DNA of 52,074 nucleotides from contig JAFTOZ010000113.1 of NCBI GenBank assembly GCA_017463565.1, forward strand, positions 1 to 52,074, given 5' to 3'. Each line of letters begins with the position of its first letter. Within the stretch, counting starts at the first letter, position 1. Positions 847 to 36,543 of this stretch are shown piece by piece. This stretch comes from Clostridia bacterium. Lineage in GTDB: Bacteria > Bacillota > Clostridia > Christensenellales > CAG-1252. The position numbers and the translations under genes were made by a program. Below the pieces are notes generated by a model that saw nothing but the letters and a program-made list of their open reading frames with translations, was not told the origin of the DNA and made no database searches.

Positions 847-968
847 CTAAATTTTGCAATTTTTCCCATTTTTACCTTATTTTTGAAAGATGTTTTTTTG
901 AGAGGTAGAGGAAGGAGTATGTGACTCAGTTTCTCCGATTTCTCTATTGCGTTTTCTCTGTTTTGGGG

Positions 969-1000
969 ATAAAAAATCGCCCCATTTTTGTGGGGCGATT
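969..1000 (-). terminator. Rho-independent terminator after the PAP2 gene
   Basis: 10-bp stem AATCGCCCCA / TGGGGCGATT. On the minus strand it is followed by a T-run (the complement of the A-run at 971-976), 40 nt downstream of the stop at 1040. Confidence 0.7.
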
Positions 1001-1039
1001 GATTGTGTTGAGAATGAGGATTCTTCGTTGTCCTCGGGA

Positions 1040-2755
1040 TTATTCGTTGTCCTCGGTGGGAGTGGAGTGGCAACAACAAGAGTGCTCGTCGGGGTTGTCC
1101 TTGTCGTGACAACAACAGGAGCGCTCTTCGGAATTTTCTTCGGAGTGGCAATGGCACTCGTGGTCGTCGTCGTGGCAATGGCACTCGTGATCCTCGGAGT
1201 GGCAACAACAGGAGTGCTCGTCGGGGTTGTCCTTATCGTGGCAACAACAGGAGTGATCTTCGTCATGACAATGGCACTCGTGATCTTCATCATGGCAATG
1301 GCACTCGTGATCTTCGGAGTTGCAGCAACAAGAGTTGTCGTCCTCGTGGCAACGGCAGGCGTGCTCATCAGAGGTGTCTTTGGAGTGGCAACAACAGGAG
1401 TTGTCGTCCTCGTGGCAACGGCAGGCGTGCTCAGCGGGGTTGTCCTTGTCATGACAACAGCAGGAGTGCTCTTCATCATGGCAATGGCACTCGTGGTCTT
1501 CGGAGTGGCAACGACAAGAGTGCTCATCGGGGGTATCCTTGTCGTGACAACAACAGGAGTGCTCTTCATCATGACAATGGCATTCGTGGTCTTCGTCGTG
1601 ACAATGGCACTCGTGGTCTTCGGAGTGGCAGCAACAAGAGTTGTCGTCCTCGTGGCAACAACAGGAGTGCTCGTCAGAGGTGGCCTCGGAGTGGCAGCAG
1701 CAACAGCAGGCCTTGGGTGCTTTGGCAAAGAGGGCCTTGAGGTTGGAGCCACGGCAGACGAAGATTTCGCGCATCATGAGGGCGCCGAGGAAAGCGATAG
1801 TGCCACCGAACAAAACGTCGCTCATATAGTGGGCGCCAACGACGATACGGCTAAGGGCAACCAAACCCGTATAGAGAACGGTGAGGCAATAGAGCAATGC
1901 CTTGACCCAGCGCTTGTTGCACTTGGGAGAAAGGTAAGGCAGGGCAAGCAGGGTGTAGACCATACCTGCGGAGAAGGTGTGACCGCTGGGGAAAGATTTG
2001 CAGTTGTCGCTGGCAAGAACGATATTGAAGGTATCTTCCAACAGGTTGCGTTTGCCGTTGATGACGTACCAGGGGGTGTAGTAGGAGAAATCGCCCAGAT
2101 AGTTCATAGTACGGAAGCGCACACGGCCGATGGGAGATTTGACGAAGTGTACCACGAGGTAGCAAGCCATCGTGCCAACGATGGCAAATACCCACCAAAC
2201 CATACGGCGGTTTGTTTCGGGATTGACACGCTTCCACAAGGCGATGACACCGCAAGCAAGACCCAAGCCTACCACTGCGCAGAGTGCGCTGATATAGGGG
2301 GTGGAAGCAAGCTCTTTGGCTACGTGGACGTATTTGCCGTGGTCCGCAGGATAGAGCTCGGCACCGATGAACTCGGCGGTGTATTTGAACAGATCGTGCA
2401 GAATGAAGTAGCAACCCACGGTAGCGCCGACTACGGCAAGGAGAGCCAACCATTTGAGTTTGTCATTTCTTCTCCAAAAAGCCCAAAAGAGAATGGCACA
2501 GGCTACCACGATCATACCGAACATAGGCGCAGAGCCAATGGCCTCGAAGAATAGACCGAATCCGTTATACGAGATATAGTCACCGTGGTCTTTGCCCAAT
2601 GCCTCGCCCTCCAGGGAATCCTTGGTGAGGATTTGGCTGATGGGAAGATCGTAGTAGGTGGCTACCACCACGAGTGCGGTGAACACCACAGCAAAGATAA
2701 GAATCGCGAGAATGATTTTGAGCCGAGGATTGGGACTCAATGCGGTTTTGATCAT
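1040..2755 (-). CDS. PAP2-family membrane lipid phosphatase with a 222-aa Cys/His/Asp/Glu repeat tail
   Basis: The 571-aa ORF has multiple N-terminal TM segments. PAP2 signature motifs are KSFPSGH and SRIVVGAHYMSDV. The C-terminal tail consists of CCCH/CHCH/CRCH clusters. Confidence 0.85.
   Translation of the reverse strand: MIKTALSPNPRLKIILAILIFAVVFTALVVVATYYDLPISQILTKDSLEGEALGKDHGDYISYNGFGLFFEAIGSAPMFGMIVVACAILFWAFWRRNDKLKWLALLAVVGATVGCYFILHDLFKYTAEFIGAELYPADHGKYVHVAKELASTPYISALCAVVGLGLACGVIALWKRVNPETNRRMVWWVFAIVGTMACYLVVHFVKSPIGRVRFRTMNYLGDFSYYTPWYVINGKRNLLEDTFNIVLASDNCKSFPSGHTFSAGMVYTLLALPYLSPKCNKRWVKALLYCLTVLYTGLVALSRIVVGAHYMSDVLFGGTIAFLGALMMREIFVCRGSNLKALFAKAPKACCCCCHSEATSDEHSCCCHEDDNSCCCHSEDHECHCHDEDHECHCHDEEHSCCCHDKDTPDEHSCRCHSEDHECHCHDEEHSCCCHDKDNPAEHACRCHEDDNSCCCHSKDTSDEHACRCHEDDNSCCCNSEDHECHCHDEDHECHCHDEDHSCCCHDKDNPDEHSCCCHSEDHECHCHDDDHECHCHSEENSEERSCCCHDKDNPDEHSCCCHSTPTEDNE
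1043..1708. repeat. Imperfect in-frame tandem repeats encoding the Cys/His-rich tail
   Basis: The peptide pattern ...SCCCHSEDHECHCHDEDHECHCHDEEHSCCCHDKD(N/T)P(D/A)EH... recurs. The repeat symmetry creates long spurious ORFs in other frames (947..2554 +, 877..1752 -). Confidence 0.85.
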
Positions 2756-2803
2756 AGGTACCTCCTGGGAGCACGCTCCAATTTATGTTGGTGGCAGAGC
2801 CAC

Positions 2804-3649
2804 TTAGTCTATGGGTAGAATCTGCAAGGTGGGCGCCACGCAGCGGAAGGAAAGGGAAAAGGAAGAAAGAGTTCTCTTTTCGCCGTCCATACACCAGTCC
2901 AAGTTTTGTGGAGAGGTGAGGGTGAGGGTGGAAACCTCTTGGAAGAGGATTCGTCCGGTGTGAATGGGGCGCCTTATGCCGAGGAAGAAAATGCGGAAGA
3001 AGGGGAAGAATAGGCGCGCACGGGCAATCAAGCCGTCCTTTCCAAAGGAGCGCACCAGAAGCAGGTGGGCACTTTCTTTGGTGGGGTCGTAGAGACGGTT
3101 GAAAGGGAAGCGGAAGCAAACCCTGCTTTTGATGAGCATAGCAAGGGTGTAGTTGCCCTCGATATGCTTCTCGTCTGCCTCGACGGATAGGGGGAAATCG
3201 TAGGCACGGTAGGCAGACAGTACGCGCCGTACGTATGCCCACGCACCCTGCTTTTGTTTGGCGGCAACGGTGGACGTATAGCCAATGGGGGTAAAGGAGC
3301 CTGTTGCTAACACGTAGGTGAAGATTTCTCCGTTGGATAGCTCGCCCACCACCGGGTCGGCAGAAAGCCTGGTGGGGGTATGGGCACGCTCGTTGAGGGT
3401 GCCGCACGGATAGTATTTGAGAAGAAGGGGCACTTCTTTTGCCCATTGCAGTACGGCACGCAAGGTGCCGTCGCCACCTGCTACCAATACCTCGGTGAAT
3501 GCCGCAGGCAGAAAGCAGGAAAGTTGCTCTACCCCAATGACCGTGGGGTTGGGGTCGGATAAAAAGCGTGCAATGAGTTGGTCAATTTGCACGCTTTTGG
3601 CTCGGCCGCTATTCTCGTTGAATACGACCAGACTGTGGGTCATTACCAC
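2804..3649 (-). CDS. Diacylglycerol/lipid kinase family protein (DAGK catalytic domain, YegS/BmrU-like)
   Basis: GGDGT motif (VLVAGGDGTLRAV) at the expected position. Length ~280 aa. Overlaps the upstream gene's stop by 7 nt. Confidence 0.75.
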   Translation of the reverse strand: MVMTHSLVVFNENSGRAKSVQIDQLIARFLSDPNPTVIGVEQLSCFLPAAFTEVLVAGGDGTLRAVLQWAKEVPLLLKYYPCGTLNERAHTPTRLSADPVVGELSNGEIFTYVLATGSFTPIGYTSTVAAKQKQGAWAYVRRVLSAYRAYDFPLSVEADEKHIEGNYTLAMLIKSRVCFRFPFNRLYDPTKESAHLLLVRSFGKDGLIARARLFFPFFRIFFLGIRRPIHTGRILFQEVSTLTLTSPQNLDWCMDGEKRTLSSFSLSFRCVAPTLQILPID

Positions 3650-4692
3650 TTATTGTGGACACGCTCGGCAAATACCGTGGCATCCTTGAGTTCCACCACG
3701 GTGCCATCGTCCAAGACGGCACGGCCGCTCATACGGCCAAAGACTTGGTGGGGAATCATACAGATCACTTTGAGGTCTACGGGGGCTTGGCGATCGATGA
3801 TGGGGGTGAAGTTCATTTCGAAACGGCCGTCGTTGGAGGTGAACTTCCAGGGTTCCATATAGAGGTACTCACCCTTGGGAGAGCGAGGAATATGGAAGGT
3901 GACCTCGTCCAGCTTGTGTGCCTTGCCGTCGTAGAAAAGCATATTTTCGGTGGCGGCAGAGGTGTCGCCAAAGCCGTAGCCTACGTTGAAGCCAAACAGG
4001 TGGCCGTCGGGCAATTCCACTTGGCCACTACCCCAATACCAGGTGTTGTCGTACGTCCAGACGCCGCGACCCCAATCGAGGGTGGCGAGAGATTTGTTTT
4101 CGCGATTGAAGCGGTAGGTGACCCCATCAAACAGGCACCAACCCTCGGCACGCATGCAGTTGATCTTTTGGTTGTAGTAGAAGTGTTTGTCCTTGTGGAA
4201 GGGGGTGGCGATCACCATACTCTCCTCGGGCGCCTCGGAAAGCACCACGTCGAAAGTGATGGGAGAGCCGGACTTGCCAAAGTTGTCCAATCGGCCGTAG
4301 AGACGGCGAGTGGTGCCGTCGTTGAGGAAGTGCATATCCGCACGGCCTACCTTGGCGTGGACGTCACCCTTTTCGCTCGTCCAGGGCATACCCAGAGAAC
4401 CCAAGGGGAGAGCATCCAACACACCGTCGTTGATCTGGAAGGGATATTCGCCAAAGCCCAACAGAGAGACGTTCAGACTGGTGACGAAACCTGCGTCCGA
4501 GATAGTCAGACACAGACCAAACTCATCGTTGCCTATGTAGTAGTAGTCCCACTCCTTGATACGGATTTTGGGGGCTTTGATGTCGGCACGGTCATACTCC
4601 CACAAAAGACGTTTGGCATAGCCGGGACAGGCAATATTGCCCTCGGCATTGAGTAGACGTTGCTTTTCGATAATTTCTGTTTGCTTAGCCAT
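3643..4692 (-). CDS. DUF2804-like protein
   Basis: The start is trimmed to the ATG at 4692 (MAKQTE...), which is preceded by AAGGAGAA. My recollection of the DUF2804 family comes from the IKEWDYYYI... segment. The longer ORF (to 4788) has an Arg/Gln/His-rich non-protein-like N-terminus. Confidence 0.55.
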   Translation of the reverse strand: MAKQTEIIEKQRLLNAEGNIACPGYAKRLLWEYDRADIKAPKIRIKEWDYYYIGNDEFGLCLTISDAGFVTSLNVSLLGFGEYPFQINDGVLDALPLGSLGMPWTSEKGDVHAKVGRADMHFLNDGTTRRLYGRLDNFGKSGSPITFDVVLSEAPEESMVIATPFHKDKHFYYNQKINCMRAEGWCLFDGVTYRFNRENKSLATLDWGRGVWTYDNTWYWGSGQVELPDGHLFGFNVGYGFGDTSAATENMLFYDGKAHKLDEVTFHIPRSPKGEYLYMEPWKFTSNDGRFEMNFTPIIDRQAPVDLKVICMIPHQVFGRMSGRAVLDDGTVVELKDATVFAERVHNKW

Positions 4693-4724
4693 AGTTTTCT
4701 CCTTGTTCTCTTTTTGCGCTTGTT

Positions 4725-5477
4725 TTAGAAATTGATTTCCCACTTGCCTTTGGCGGTGATGAGAAGTACCACCTTGCCCTCGATCCAACTCGACTTGATA
4801 GGACCGTAGTCCTCGCTATCTATGCTGACCGAGCGGTTGTCGCCCATAATGAAATATTCCTCCGCACCCAGGGTGTAGGCATAGTTACGTGAGCCGTTCC
4901 CCGTGAGTTTGAGACCGCCCGGGTAGTCGTAGAGTTCGGCTCTGGCGTCCAACTCGTTGTTGACGTAGAGTTTGCCCTCGATGAAGGCAACCGTATCGCC
5001 CGGGATCCCCACGACACGCTTGATGACCCGTTTATAGCCGTCTGCTACTGCAGACTCGCCTGCGGAGCCTTGGTTGACGAAAGGCATAGAGCGAATGAAG
5101 TCGGTGAAGGTGACGGGGCGAGAGGCAGGACACTCTGCCTCGTCATTGGCGTACATACCCAACAGCGTGCCGTACTGGGTCACGAGAGAGGAATTGGAAT
5201 AGAATTCCTCGGCGCCCACCGGTACGTAGGTGACGATGACGTCTCCCCTTTTGTATTCCTTGGCGGCCTTGTTGATGAAAACCTTGGCGCCTGCTGCATC
5301 GATGGTGGGCGCCATAGAGTTGCCCACAATCTCGATAGAGGTGAGCAGGTAGGCTTGTATGAGGGCAACCGCAACCAATGCGATGATGACGATGAGGATA
5401 ACCTCTACGATGATCACCATCAGTTTCTTGGGGGTGAAGCCCTCTTCGTGTTTTGATTCTTTGTTCATTATACCCAT
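4725..5477 (-). CDS. lepB: Signal peptidase I
   Basis: One N-terminal TM segment, the catalytic Ser box GNSMAPTI, and the GDNRSVSIDS box. The start is ATG 5477 or ATG 5468, and the latter overlaps the upstream TAA as TAATG. Confidence 0.85.
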   Translation of the reverse strand: MGIMNKESKHEEGFTPKKLMVIIVEVILIVIIALVAVALIQAYLLTSIEIVGNSMAPTIDAAGAKVFINKAAKEYKRGDVIVTYVPVGAEEFYSNSSLVTQYGTLLGMYANDEAECPASRPVTFTDFIRSMPFVNQGSAGESAVADGYKRVIKRVVGIPGDTVAFIEGKLYVNNELDARAELYDYPGGLKLTGNGSRNYAYTLGAEEYFIMGDNRSVSIDSEDYGPIKSSWIEGKVVLLITAKGKWEINF

Positions 5478-36198: not shown

Positions 36199-36543
36199 CG
36201 AGAAGTCCGCGGGGAACTTCTCGCAGTGAAATCCGTCTTTGACGGGTGAAATCCACCTGCGGTGGGTGAAATCGCTTTCGCGGTGAAATCCTGCTACGCA
36301 GGGTTGCGGTGATACGTTAATTTCATCTAAACAAATTAAAGAACAAATAAAAGAAAAGAGCAGAGCGAAGCAAGAAAGTCCGCGGGGAACTTCTCGCAGT
36401 GAAATCCGTCTTTGACGGGGGAAATCCACCTGCGGTGGGTGAAATCGCTTTCGCGGTGAAATCCTGCTACGCAGGGTTGCGGTGGTACGTTTAGTTTCAT
36501 CTGAACAAATTCAAGAATAAATAAAAGAAAAGAGCAGGAAGTT
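36198..36543. repeat. Two tandem ~173-bp units, each with GTGAAATC x4 alternating with mini-hairpins
   Basis: The unit offset is 173-174 bp (for example GTCCGC at 36205 and 36378). See the findings for hairpin coordinates. Confidence 0.9.

Follow-up and report, generated by a model that had tools for sequence, protein, structure and literature searches.

A PAP2-family membrane protein from an uncultured Clostridia species carries a long Cys/His repeat tail, a candidate membrane-tethered metal store

The DNA considered here is a stretch of 52,074 nucleotides from a Clostridia bacterium (contig JAFTOZ010000113.1 of assembly GCA_017463565.1), referred to below as the window. The element under study is a single gene on its reverse strand, whose product of 571 amino acids joins a PAP2-type membrane phosphatase to a C-terminal tail of tandem Cys/His clusters separated by acidic linkers. 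The fusion is real: it is found in frame on four independent contigs, as three alleles, and the gene is intact. The tail quite probably binds metal ions, and it is fairly likely that it works as a high-capacity metal store, buffer or sink tethered to the membrane, with the PAP2 core serving mainly as its anchor.

The composition of the tail is extreme. Its 222 residues comprise 55 Cys, 43 His, 36 Asp, 34 Glu, 22 Ser and 9 Asn, five each of Thr, Lys and Pro, and four each of Ala and Arg, with no Phe, Trp or Tyr and with Ala as the sole aliphatic residue. Cys amounts to 24.8%, His to 19% and Asp plus Glu to 32%, and the net charge is approximately -61. An earlier note, made from the letters alone, had placed the tail at the same positions and put its Cys content at about 55, which proves to be the exact number. 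The note had also described some 21 four-residue clusters with acidic linkers of five or nine residues; this architecture stands, although one CCCN cluster was missing from its list of types. The 21 clusters, of the form C-x-C-[H/N], are ten CCCH (the first of them as CCCCCH), seven CHCH, three CRCH and one CCCN, and the 20 linkers between them have five residues in 13 cases and nine in the other seven. Along the whole tail the density of Cys plus His stays between 0.30 and 0.57 per 30 residues, and nothing comparable occurs in any other genuine reading frame of the 52-kb window. Most clusters are preceded, at a distance of two residues, by a further His (linker position 4 in 21 of 30 five-residue linkers and position 8 in 16 of 19 nine-residue linkers, counts pooled over the three alleles), and for this reason the functional unit is read from the sequence as H-x-C-x-C-H followed by an acidic triplet. 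Two long open reading frames that overlap the array, an antisense one at 947-2554 (+) and one in an alternative frame at 877-1752 (-), were rejected as genes and regarded as by-products of the tail repeat.

A repeat of this kind raises the question of an assembly artefact or a frameshifted fusion, which the earlier note had singled out as a check and which, together with an oxidised tail outside the cytoplasm, is now scarcely credible. Short-read assemblies often collapse or mis-join repeats, and the exact copy number of each allele could be off; however, the identical 571-residue protein occurs on an independent 19-kb ENA scaffold (L125) with 7 differences from the window over 12,755 nucleotides, and the 90%-identity protein cluster holds two more alleles from other samples, one of 526 residues (L120) and one of 509 (L121). 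The tail has 222 residues and 21 clusters in the window and in L125, 177 residues and 16 clusters in L120, and 160 residues and 15 clusters in L121. In all of them the join is in frame and identical (KALFAKAPKA/CCCCCH), at the exact point where the acidic tails of orthologues start, and the tail finishes with STPTEDNE, a stop codon and a common terminator hairpin. Synonymous variation makes the repeats distinct enough to assemble. The oxidised, extracytoplasmic alternative is opposed by the topology prediction described below, which puts the C-terminus inside.

The PAP2 cores of the three alleles are 97.3–98.6% identical at the DNA level and differ by 14–26 synonymous and only 1–2 non-synonymous codons; because nearly all differences are synonymous, the alleles are taken to represent strains of a single species, subject to strong purifying selection. 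Their tails have changed much more. The aligned parts of the tail DNA are only 85–89% identical, and the alignment contains seven indels (12, 120, 27, 54, 27, 78 and 39 nt), all of them multiples of three and most of them whole units of 27 or 39 nt. Where the array ends on its 3′ side, 19 nt (GGATTATTCGTTGTCCTCG) are directly duplicated across the stop codon, so that the final codons for (P)EDNE recur out of frame just past it. This duplication is kept in L120, L121 and L125 and is probably a relic of slippage.

The codons of the clusters, pooled as 52 clusters from the three alleles, indicate what has been preserved during this expansion. All 52 clusters have Cys at both position 1 and position 3, encoded by 25 TGC and 27 TGT codons at position 1 and by 36 TGC and 16 TGT at position 3 (the PAP2 core, for comparison, uses TGC eight times and TGT once), which means that the synonymous sites diverged freely and Cys was never substituted. 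Position 2 holds Cys (29), His (14) or Arg (9), the Arg codons (CGY) being one-step intermediates between TGY and CAY, while position 4 is His in 47 clusters and Asn in five. On this codon evidence, the pattern appears to fit protein-level selection on metal ligands and not neutral slippage. The contrary proposal, that slippage inflated a tolerant low-complexity tail into a functionless runaway expansion whose Cys/His richness is incidental, is improbable. Slippage is indeed evident, in the periods of 27, 66 and 93 nt detected by Tandem Repeats Finder, in the duplication at the stop codon and in the whole-unit indels among strains, and the tails of the family vary greatly in length and sequence, with this type limited to one species; but slippage by itself does not account for the constancy of Cys at positions 1 and 3 amid well-mixed synonymous sites, for the restriction of position 2 to Cys, Arg or His and of position 4 to His or Asn, or for alleles that all remain in frame with unchanged ends. 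Moreover, residues of Cys and His in such numbers (55 and 43) are reactive and come at a cost, and many metal-handling proteins have taken up this unit independently of one another.

Conventional searches with the tail alone are blind to these other proteins. No Pfam family and no PDB sequence is matched at E<=10, and a phmmer search of 5.8 billion proteins returns no match, not even the tail's own 526-residue allele, but the composition-bias correction of HMMER suppresses sequences like this one and such empty results are not evidence of absence. Since profile searches with the tail fail on composition filters, degenerate DNA patterns were scanned instead. The pattern CxCH-x5-CxCH-x5-CxCH, sought in one genome per species, occurs in at least 119 stretches, with the window's own species not among the matches listed. 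Most of the listed matches are wrong-frame translations of G+C-rich repeats, which give "ORFs" rich in Arg, Pro and Gly. At least about 20 are genuine acidic Cys/His arrays with the unit HECHCH[DE][DE][GDE], and their carriers, assigned by Pfam, appear in Table 1. In the phosphomannose isomerases, the insert consists of three to five copies of ECHCH[DE]EGH, a number that varies by species. Another carrier, a protein of 325 residues with no Pfam domain from a goat-omasum "Proteobacteria" metagenome-assembled genome (MAG; L032, 5669-6646, minus strand), begins with 13 tandem decapeptides HSH[DE]GECSCH, the longest CxCH array besides the window tail among the matches listed. Measured in clusters, the window tail has 21, this protein has 13 CSCH, and the largest of the other arrays listed has 8 CxCH.

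The titles of the records that hold these arrays mostly name MAGs from animal guts (human, chicken, pig, goat, cattle and roe deer). The SlyD, COG0523 and ArsP-HMA carriers are cytoplasmic or present the unit on the cytoplasmic side, and the same is true of phosphomannose isomerase. None of the matches listed in the genome scan is a PAP2 enzyme, and a second scan, of tail peptides against metagenome contigs, returned no PAP2 relative and only SlyD and phosphomannose-isomerase genes with the tail unit. Taken together, these observations suggest that the Cys/His/acidic unit is a portable module in animal-gut bacteria, and that the nonapeptide module is common among them. No description of the HECHCH unit was found in the searchable literature. 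The building block is already known in kind; what is new is the partner protein and the length. The inference of metal binding is made stronger by the fact that the H-x-C-x-C-H/acidic unit builds the SlyD, COG0523 and HMA-permease segments of other gut anaerobes.

The closest parallels are found among metallochaperones. E. coli SlyD can bind as many as 7 Ni(II) on its tail, in which His, Cys, Asp and Glu abound, and the H. pylori protein takes 2.4 Ni or 3.3 Zn (PMC7055735; PMC3292732); SlyD has been described as a Ni storage protein (PMC12284835). Like the window tail, the SlyD tail is unstructured and cytoplasmic, and SlyD of gut Bacteroidales uses the very unit HECHCH[DE][DE]G; however, SlyD tails have approximately 40–90 residues and three or four units on a soluble FKBP chaperone, whereas the tail described here has 15–21 units and 160–222 residues on a membrane enzyme. 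A His stretch in HypB binds 18 Ni per dimer, and His stretches occur in about 40% of COG0523 proteins, where they have been read as metallochaperone or storage elements (PMC2770081). In the G3E GTPases (COG0523/CobW-like), a HECHCH-type unit is present in three to eight copies, among the matches listed, between the cobW and CobW_C domains. The stretches of COG0523 and HypB are internal linkers of dedicated metal-delivery GTPases, in contrast with a PAP2 carrier that has no known metal role. The tail thus shares with the metal-binding tails of metallochaperones (SlyD, HypB, COG0523 and UreE as a class) a disordered segment with many His, Cys, Asp and Glu residues and a common unit, and lacks their metal-delivery domain, be it an FKBP/IF chaperone or a G3E GTPase.

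A second comparison is with metallothioneins (SmtA/BmtA, MymT and the snail proteins), with which the tail shares its richness in Cys (25%), CxC and CC motifs (21 clusters), lack of aromatic residues and a disordered apo form. Multi-domain snail metallothioneins scale their capacity by duplication of modules (PMC11513058), as the window tail also appears to do, and bacterial metallothioneins have about 60 residues and about 16% Cys (PMC13578184, Table 1). The window tail differs in that it shows, in the Pfam and PDB searches above, no sequence relationship to them, SmtA/BmtA included, is very rich in His and acidic, has about four times the length of a bacterial metallothionein, and is part of a larger protein instead of a small free-standing one. 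It is most likely metallothionein-like in function, on this comparison, and not a member of the metallothionein family. One record that might have served as precedent, a thioredoxin-metallothionein chimera (PMC13578184), was not used as such: by the figures of that paper, its N-terminus is 96% identical to enterobacterial TrxA and its C-terminus 98% to Synechococcus SmtA, and it resembles an expression construct.

Metallothioneins double as redox buffers, and a strict-anaerobe lineage with a tail that is one-quarter Cys could use it as a thiol buffer or redox sink (for oxygen, electrophiles or sulfane sulfur), or to bind Fe-S clusters, instead of metals. This is very unlikely, given that His has been co-selected beside Cys in H-x-C-x-C-H, that acidic spacers are typical of metal sites, that proteins with metallochaperone or HMA domains also carry the unit, and that no spacing of the CxxCxxCxxxC type exists in the tail for Fe-S binding.

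Other His- or Cys-rich proteins resemble the tail in part. Hpn and Hpn-like of H. pylori, which serve in Ni storage or detoxification (PMC5312948, PMC8704837), are likewise low-complexity and His-rich with short Cys-containing repeats, but they are small, soluble, dominated by His (and Gln) and built from another unit. Metal transporters (CDF/ZnT, P1B-ATPases, ArsP_1-HMA) are, like the window protein, membrane proteins with a cytoplasmic His/Cys-rich segment, ZnT8 for instance having a Cys-containing C-terminal tail (PMC8000985); those carriers, however, move metals, whereas PAP2 enzymes are metal-independent histidine phosphatases. The earlier note knew of no PAP2 enzyme with such a tail, and this agrees with the literature, in which neither a PAP2 enzyme with a Cys/His tail nor a precedent for PAP2 plus metallothionein was found. 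What is new, then, is the carrier, the tethering to a metal-independent membrane enzyme, the length relative to bacterial metallothioneins, and a copy-number series within one species.

Other interpretations of the array were set aside. A precursor of a ribosomally synthesized and post-translationally modified peptide of the ranthipeptide kind was rejected on the grounds that there is no maturase and that the array is fused to an enzyme with eight transmembrane helices, and an Fe-S scaffold on the grounds of its Cys spacing. S-acylation of the tail was also rejected; no cytoplasmic palmitoylation is known from bacteria.

As for the carrier, the sequence identifies the core as a member of the PAP2 superfamily and a putative lipid-phosphate phosphatase. 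PF01569 matches residues 232–328 with 50.2 bits (cutoff 27.2, E=2.9e-13), and no domain besides PAP2 is detected by Pfam in the protein. The KSFPSGH and C3 motifs reported in the earlier note are borne out, their key residues being invariant in 55 members. The C1 signature KX6RP is present with Phe at the Pro position (K206-x6-R213-F), and the C3 pattern SRX5HX3D is complete (S302-R-x5-H309-x3-D313). The best PDB sequence match of the core is PgpB/YodM of B. subtilis (5jki, E=1.5e-6). The top Foldseek matches in the PDB are also PAP2 enzymes (5jki, E. coli PgpB, LpxE, PhoN, LPP1 and G6PC1), with weak E-values (best 1.7e-3) in a model of which the disordered tail makes up 39% of the chain, and they count as consistency evidence only. 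No curated PAP2 equivalog fits, PgpB, LpxF, undecaprenyl-diphosphatase and SepP scoring 16–24 bits against NCBIfam cutoffs of 229–400. The core has in common with the bacterial PAP2 lipid phosphatases PgpB, BcrC/YbjG and LpxE/F the three signature motifs, the PAP2 fold and an outward active site; it is set apart from them by eight transmembrane helices instead of six and by the acidic cytoplasmic tail of its family.

The location of the tail follows from the topology of the core. Eight membrane helices, including a weaker one, are apparent from hydropathy. The N-terminus, the loops 91–101 and 174–185 and the segment 333–349 have three or four Lys/Arg each and almost no acidic residues, the last of these, the 17 juxtamembrane residues ahead of the tail, having four Lys/Arg and no Asp/Glu. 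The long loops 33–71, 121–154 and 205–259, in contrast, are acidic, and loop 205–259 bears motifs C1 and C2. A single transmembrane helix lies between C3 and the tail (314–332 by hydropathy; 311–333 in the AlphaFold2 model). Because of these short basic loops and basic juxtamembrane segment, the acidic catalytic loops and the one helix after C3, the positive-inside rule predicts that both termini are inside and the catalytic motifs outside, in keeping with the active sites of bacterial PAP2 enzymes, which face the periplasm (PMC7413402). The cytoplasmic C-terminus assumed in the earlier note is thus predicted by both the charge distribution and AlphaFold2, and the tail would lie in the reducing cytoplasm, on the face opposite to catalysis.

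In the AlphaFold2 model, built on a 55-sequence alignment, the core is confidently folded (predicted local distance difference test, pLDDT, above 90 for residues 10–345), and the tail is mostly coil with pLDDT mostly between 28 and 70. Short beta-hairpins appear over adjacent CHCH-x5-CHCH pairs (residues 390–405, 492–507 and 532–559, pLDDT 60–72; residues 390–559 correspond to about 1079-1588 of the window), and they could hint at knuckle-like metal sites or be a modelling artefact.

The earlier note had imagined a sensor coupled to lipid-phosphate turnover, and this finds no support, the catalytic site being on the other side of the membrane. In a more general form, a metal or redox sensor in which loading or oxidation of the tail alters the activity, oligomerisation or localisation of PAP2, and thereby ties the recycling of envelope lipid carriers or phospholipids to metal or redox status, has something to recommend it: the tail is covalently joined to the enzyme and starts 17 residues past the last transmembrane helix, the gene forms an operon-like arrangement with a neighbour that resembles a lipid kinase, and Ni on the SlyD tail reversibly inhibits the peptidyl-prolyl isomerase activity of SlyD (PMC7055735), which establishes that a tail can regulate its carrier. 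Even so, a sensor is improbable, considering that the catalytic motifs face away from the tail (PMC7413402), that no contact between tail and core is predicted, that 21 near-equivalent sites and a copy number ranging from 15 to 21 suit capacity better than a defined switch, and that orthologues have another gene in place of the kinase.

The family provides the evolutionary background of the tail. A search with the whole protein gives 396 homologues, all named "PAP2 family protein" and all from Clostridia or Clostridiales MAGs, and an exhaustive search of 1.84 billion representatives gives 55 clusters at E<1e-30. The earlier note had proposed searching with the tail and the core separately; orthologues were indeed found, with the tail present in one species only and its copy number running from 15 to 21. 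The tails of 230 retrieved members that have the C3 motif were compared. In 100 of them, the tail extends for at least 15 residues past the juxtamembrane segment and is low-complexity and acidic (median 33% Asp plus Glu and 6% Lys plus Arg, rich in Glu, Ala, Pro, Thr and Val, up to about 100 residues). The acidic-tailed relatives are positional orthologues, as they share the gene order ComEC, a 205-residue gene, a 540-residue gene, signal peptidase S26, DUF2804, a gene here called X, and PAP2 (2804-4788 of the window and loci L121-L125). Since positional orthologues carry plain acidic tails with about the same content of Asp and Glu as the window tail (32–33%), the sequences point to an ancestral tail that was acidic, disordered and cytoplasmic, in which Cys/His clusters were interleaved and then expanded in one species. 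Small CxC motifs inside acidic tails are also seen in four other lineages (P0025, P0041, P0106 and P0112/P0115), for example CTCGEEGCECPFDC and CECKIC, and these may be minimal or incipient metal-binding tails.

The neighbourhood of the gene is summarised in Table 1. The gene is probably embedded in an operon, and its terminator (fold of -22.3 kcal/mol, z = -4.6) has the hairpin kept in L120, L121 and L125. The earlier note had taken the adjacent upstream gene, X, for a diacylglycerol or lipid kinase. The Pfam family match holds (the NCBIfam model "putative lipid kinase" scores far under its own cutoff), but the implied partnership does not: X is a DAGK_cat-like gene in the contigs of all three alleles and a DUF1292 gene in the orthologues P0004 and P0016. 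By comparison of gene order, DUF2804-PAP2 appears to be the conserved linkage and the kinase adjacency not a conserved partnership. Farther along the window there are two tandem copies of the Gut-1 RNA motif (RF01706), at 36224-36294 (+) and 36397-36467 (+), with 60.2 and 52.2 bits against a gathering score of 50, which would fit a contig of gut origin. The sample labels of the allele contigs (XIEF21, LIUQ22) and of orthologue contigs (WILK20) resemble those of studies on ruminant guts, and a habitat of this kind is therefore presumed.

Table 1. Features of the gene and its surroundings (window coordinates) and other proteins that carry the Cys/His/acidic unit (L-numbers are loci)
Feature	Position	Strand	Basis or remark
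PAP2 phosphatase + Cys/His tail gene	1040..2755	-	Open reading frame list; translation (571 residues plus stop)
PAP2 core, residues 1-349, ~8 transmembrane helices	1709..2755	-	Pfam PF01569, AlphaFold2, hydropathy
PAP2 motif C1, K206-SPIGRV-R213-F214	2114..2140	-	K206, G210, R211, R213 invariant in 55 aligned members
PAP2 motif C2, K253-SFPSGH259	1979..1999	-	S254, F255, P256, S257, G258, H259 invariant in the same alignment
PAP2 motif C3, S302-RIVVGAH309-YMSD313, SRIVVGAHYMSD, residues 302-313	1817..1852	-	S302, R303, H309, D313 invariant in the same alignment
Cys/His cluster tail, residues 350-571, 222 residues	1043..1708	-	Composition, segmentation, codon analysis
Shine-Dalgarno AGGAGG, 5 nt before the ATG at 2755	2761..2766	-	Sequence reading
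Intrinsic terminator, 40 nt past the stop codon	975..1000	-	10-bp G+C-rich stem and T-run
19-nt direct duplication across the PAP2 stop codon	1018..1056		Tandem Repeats Finder, period 19, 2.1 copies
X, divergent DAGK_cat-type lipid kinase-like gene, 48 nt from the PAP2 start	2804..3649	-	Pfam DAGK_cat, 28.3 bits against a cutoff of 23.6
SlyD-type FKBP isomerases, Bacteroides and Rikenellaceae	L065, L005, L104, L131-133		C-terminal tails
COG0523 cobW/CobW_C GTPases, Christensenellaceae, Clostridiales, Ornithomonoglobus, Bacilli	L056, L051, L030, L091		Linkers, up to 8 clusters among the matches listed
ArsP_1 permeases fused to an HMA domain, Prevotellaceae and Bacteroidales	L055, L076		HCHCH/ECHCH clusters
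Type I phosphomannose isomerases (Zn enzyme family), Bacteroidales	L039 1057-2424, L072 1694-3049, L109 5286-6803, L126-L130		Insert between catalytic and cupin domains
GrpE	L036 5708-6343		N-terminus
MinD/ParA-like ATPase	L071 1-744		N-terminus
Anticodon-binding-domain protein	L118 1-459		C-terminus
TPR protein, Bullifex porci	L062 2306-3622		3 copies
TPR protein, Spirochaetales MAG	L099 5857-7242		6 copies

The proposal of a membrane-tethered metal store can be set out as follows. In-frame tandem duplication of units of nine and 13 residues would have rebuilt the ancestral acidic tail into 15–21 H-x-C-x-C-H sites. Each unit would offer a site of the Cys2His2 type, in which the additional Cys or His of position 2 would be free for bridging, and the 98 Cys and His ligands of the window allele could then hold roughly 20–35 divalent ions per chain, an estimate that assumes four ligands per ion without bridging and about three with bridging of the metallothionein type. 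The acidic spacers would keep the apo chain soluble and attract cations. Candidate metals are Zn, Ni, Co and Cd, possibly Cu(I), and the role would be storage or buffering of Zn, Ni or Co, or sequestration of Cd or Cu, on the cytoplasmic side of an anaerobe's membrane. Since the active site is predicted to lie across the membrane from the tail, the PAP2 core is seen mainly as a membrane anchor, one that would carry on ordinary catalysis at the outer face.

Several points weigh against this proposal. The Cys/His tail is limited to three alleles of one species among the 230 members compared and is dispensable for the function of the family; orthologues do well with acidic tails free of Cys, and low-complexity sequence of nearly any kind may be tolerated in this region of the protein. 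The clusters descend from one another by recent duplication, and the 52 that were analysed do not amount to 52 independent observations. The topology of the tail rests on prediction. No metal transporter, metalloregulator or riboswitch was found within 12 kb of the gene, and, striking and robustly real as the finding is, it concerns one uncultured species and comes with no contextual pointer to a specific metal or role.

In a bolder version, the tail would be the largest metallothionein-like element of bacteria, holding tens of ions, with a copy number tuned to the metal load of the gut (which would be set, for example, by Zn/Cu-supplemented feed or by sulfide-driven scarcity of metals), with loading that feeds back on PAP2 or on nearby transporters, and with the nonapeptide as a portable "metal tag" grafted repeatedly onto unrelated cytoplasmic proteins. 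As a whole, this version is rather unlikely.

The significance of the proposed metal store does not depend on that bolder version. The metallothionein-like proteins known from bacteria are few and small, and the known His/Cys metal tails are found on dedicated chaperones or transporters. If the tail does bind metals, it would show that a membrane enzyme without metal dependence can be recruited to anchor a metal store of very high capacity, and the strains described here would provide a natural case of capacity scaled by repeat copy number inside one species. The H-x-C-x-C-H unit with its acidic spacer would then be a compact, genetically encodable module, relevant to metal homeostasis in gut anaerobes as well as to bioremediation and the engineering of metal capture.

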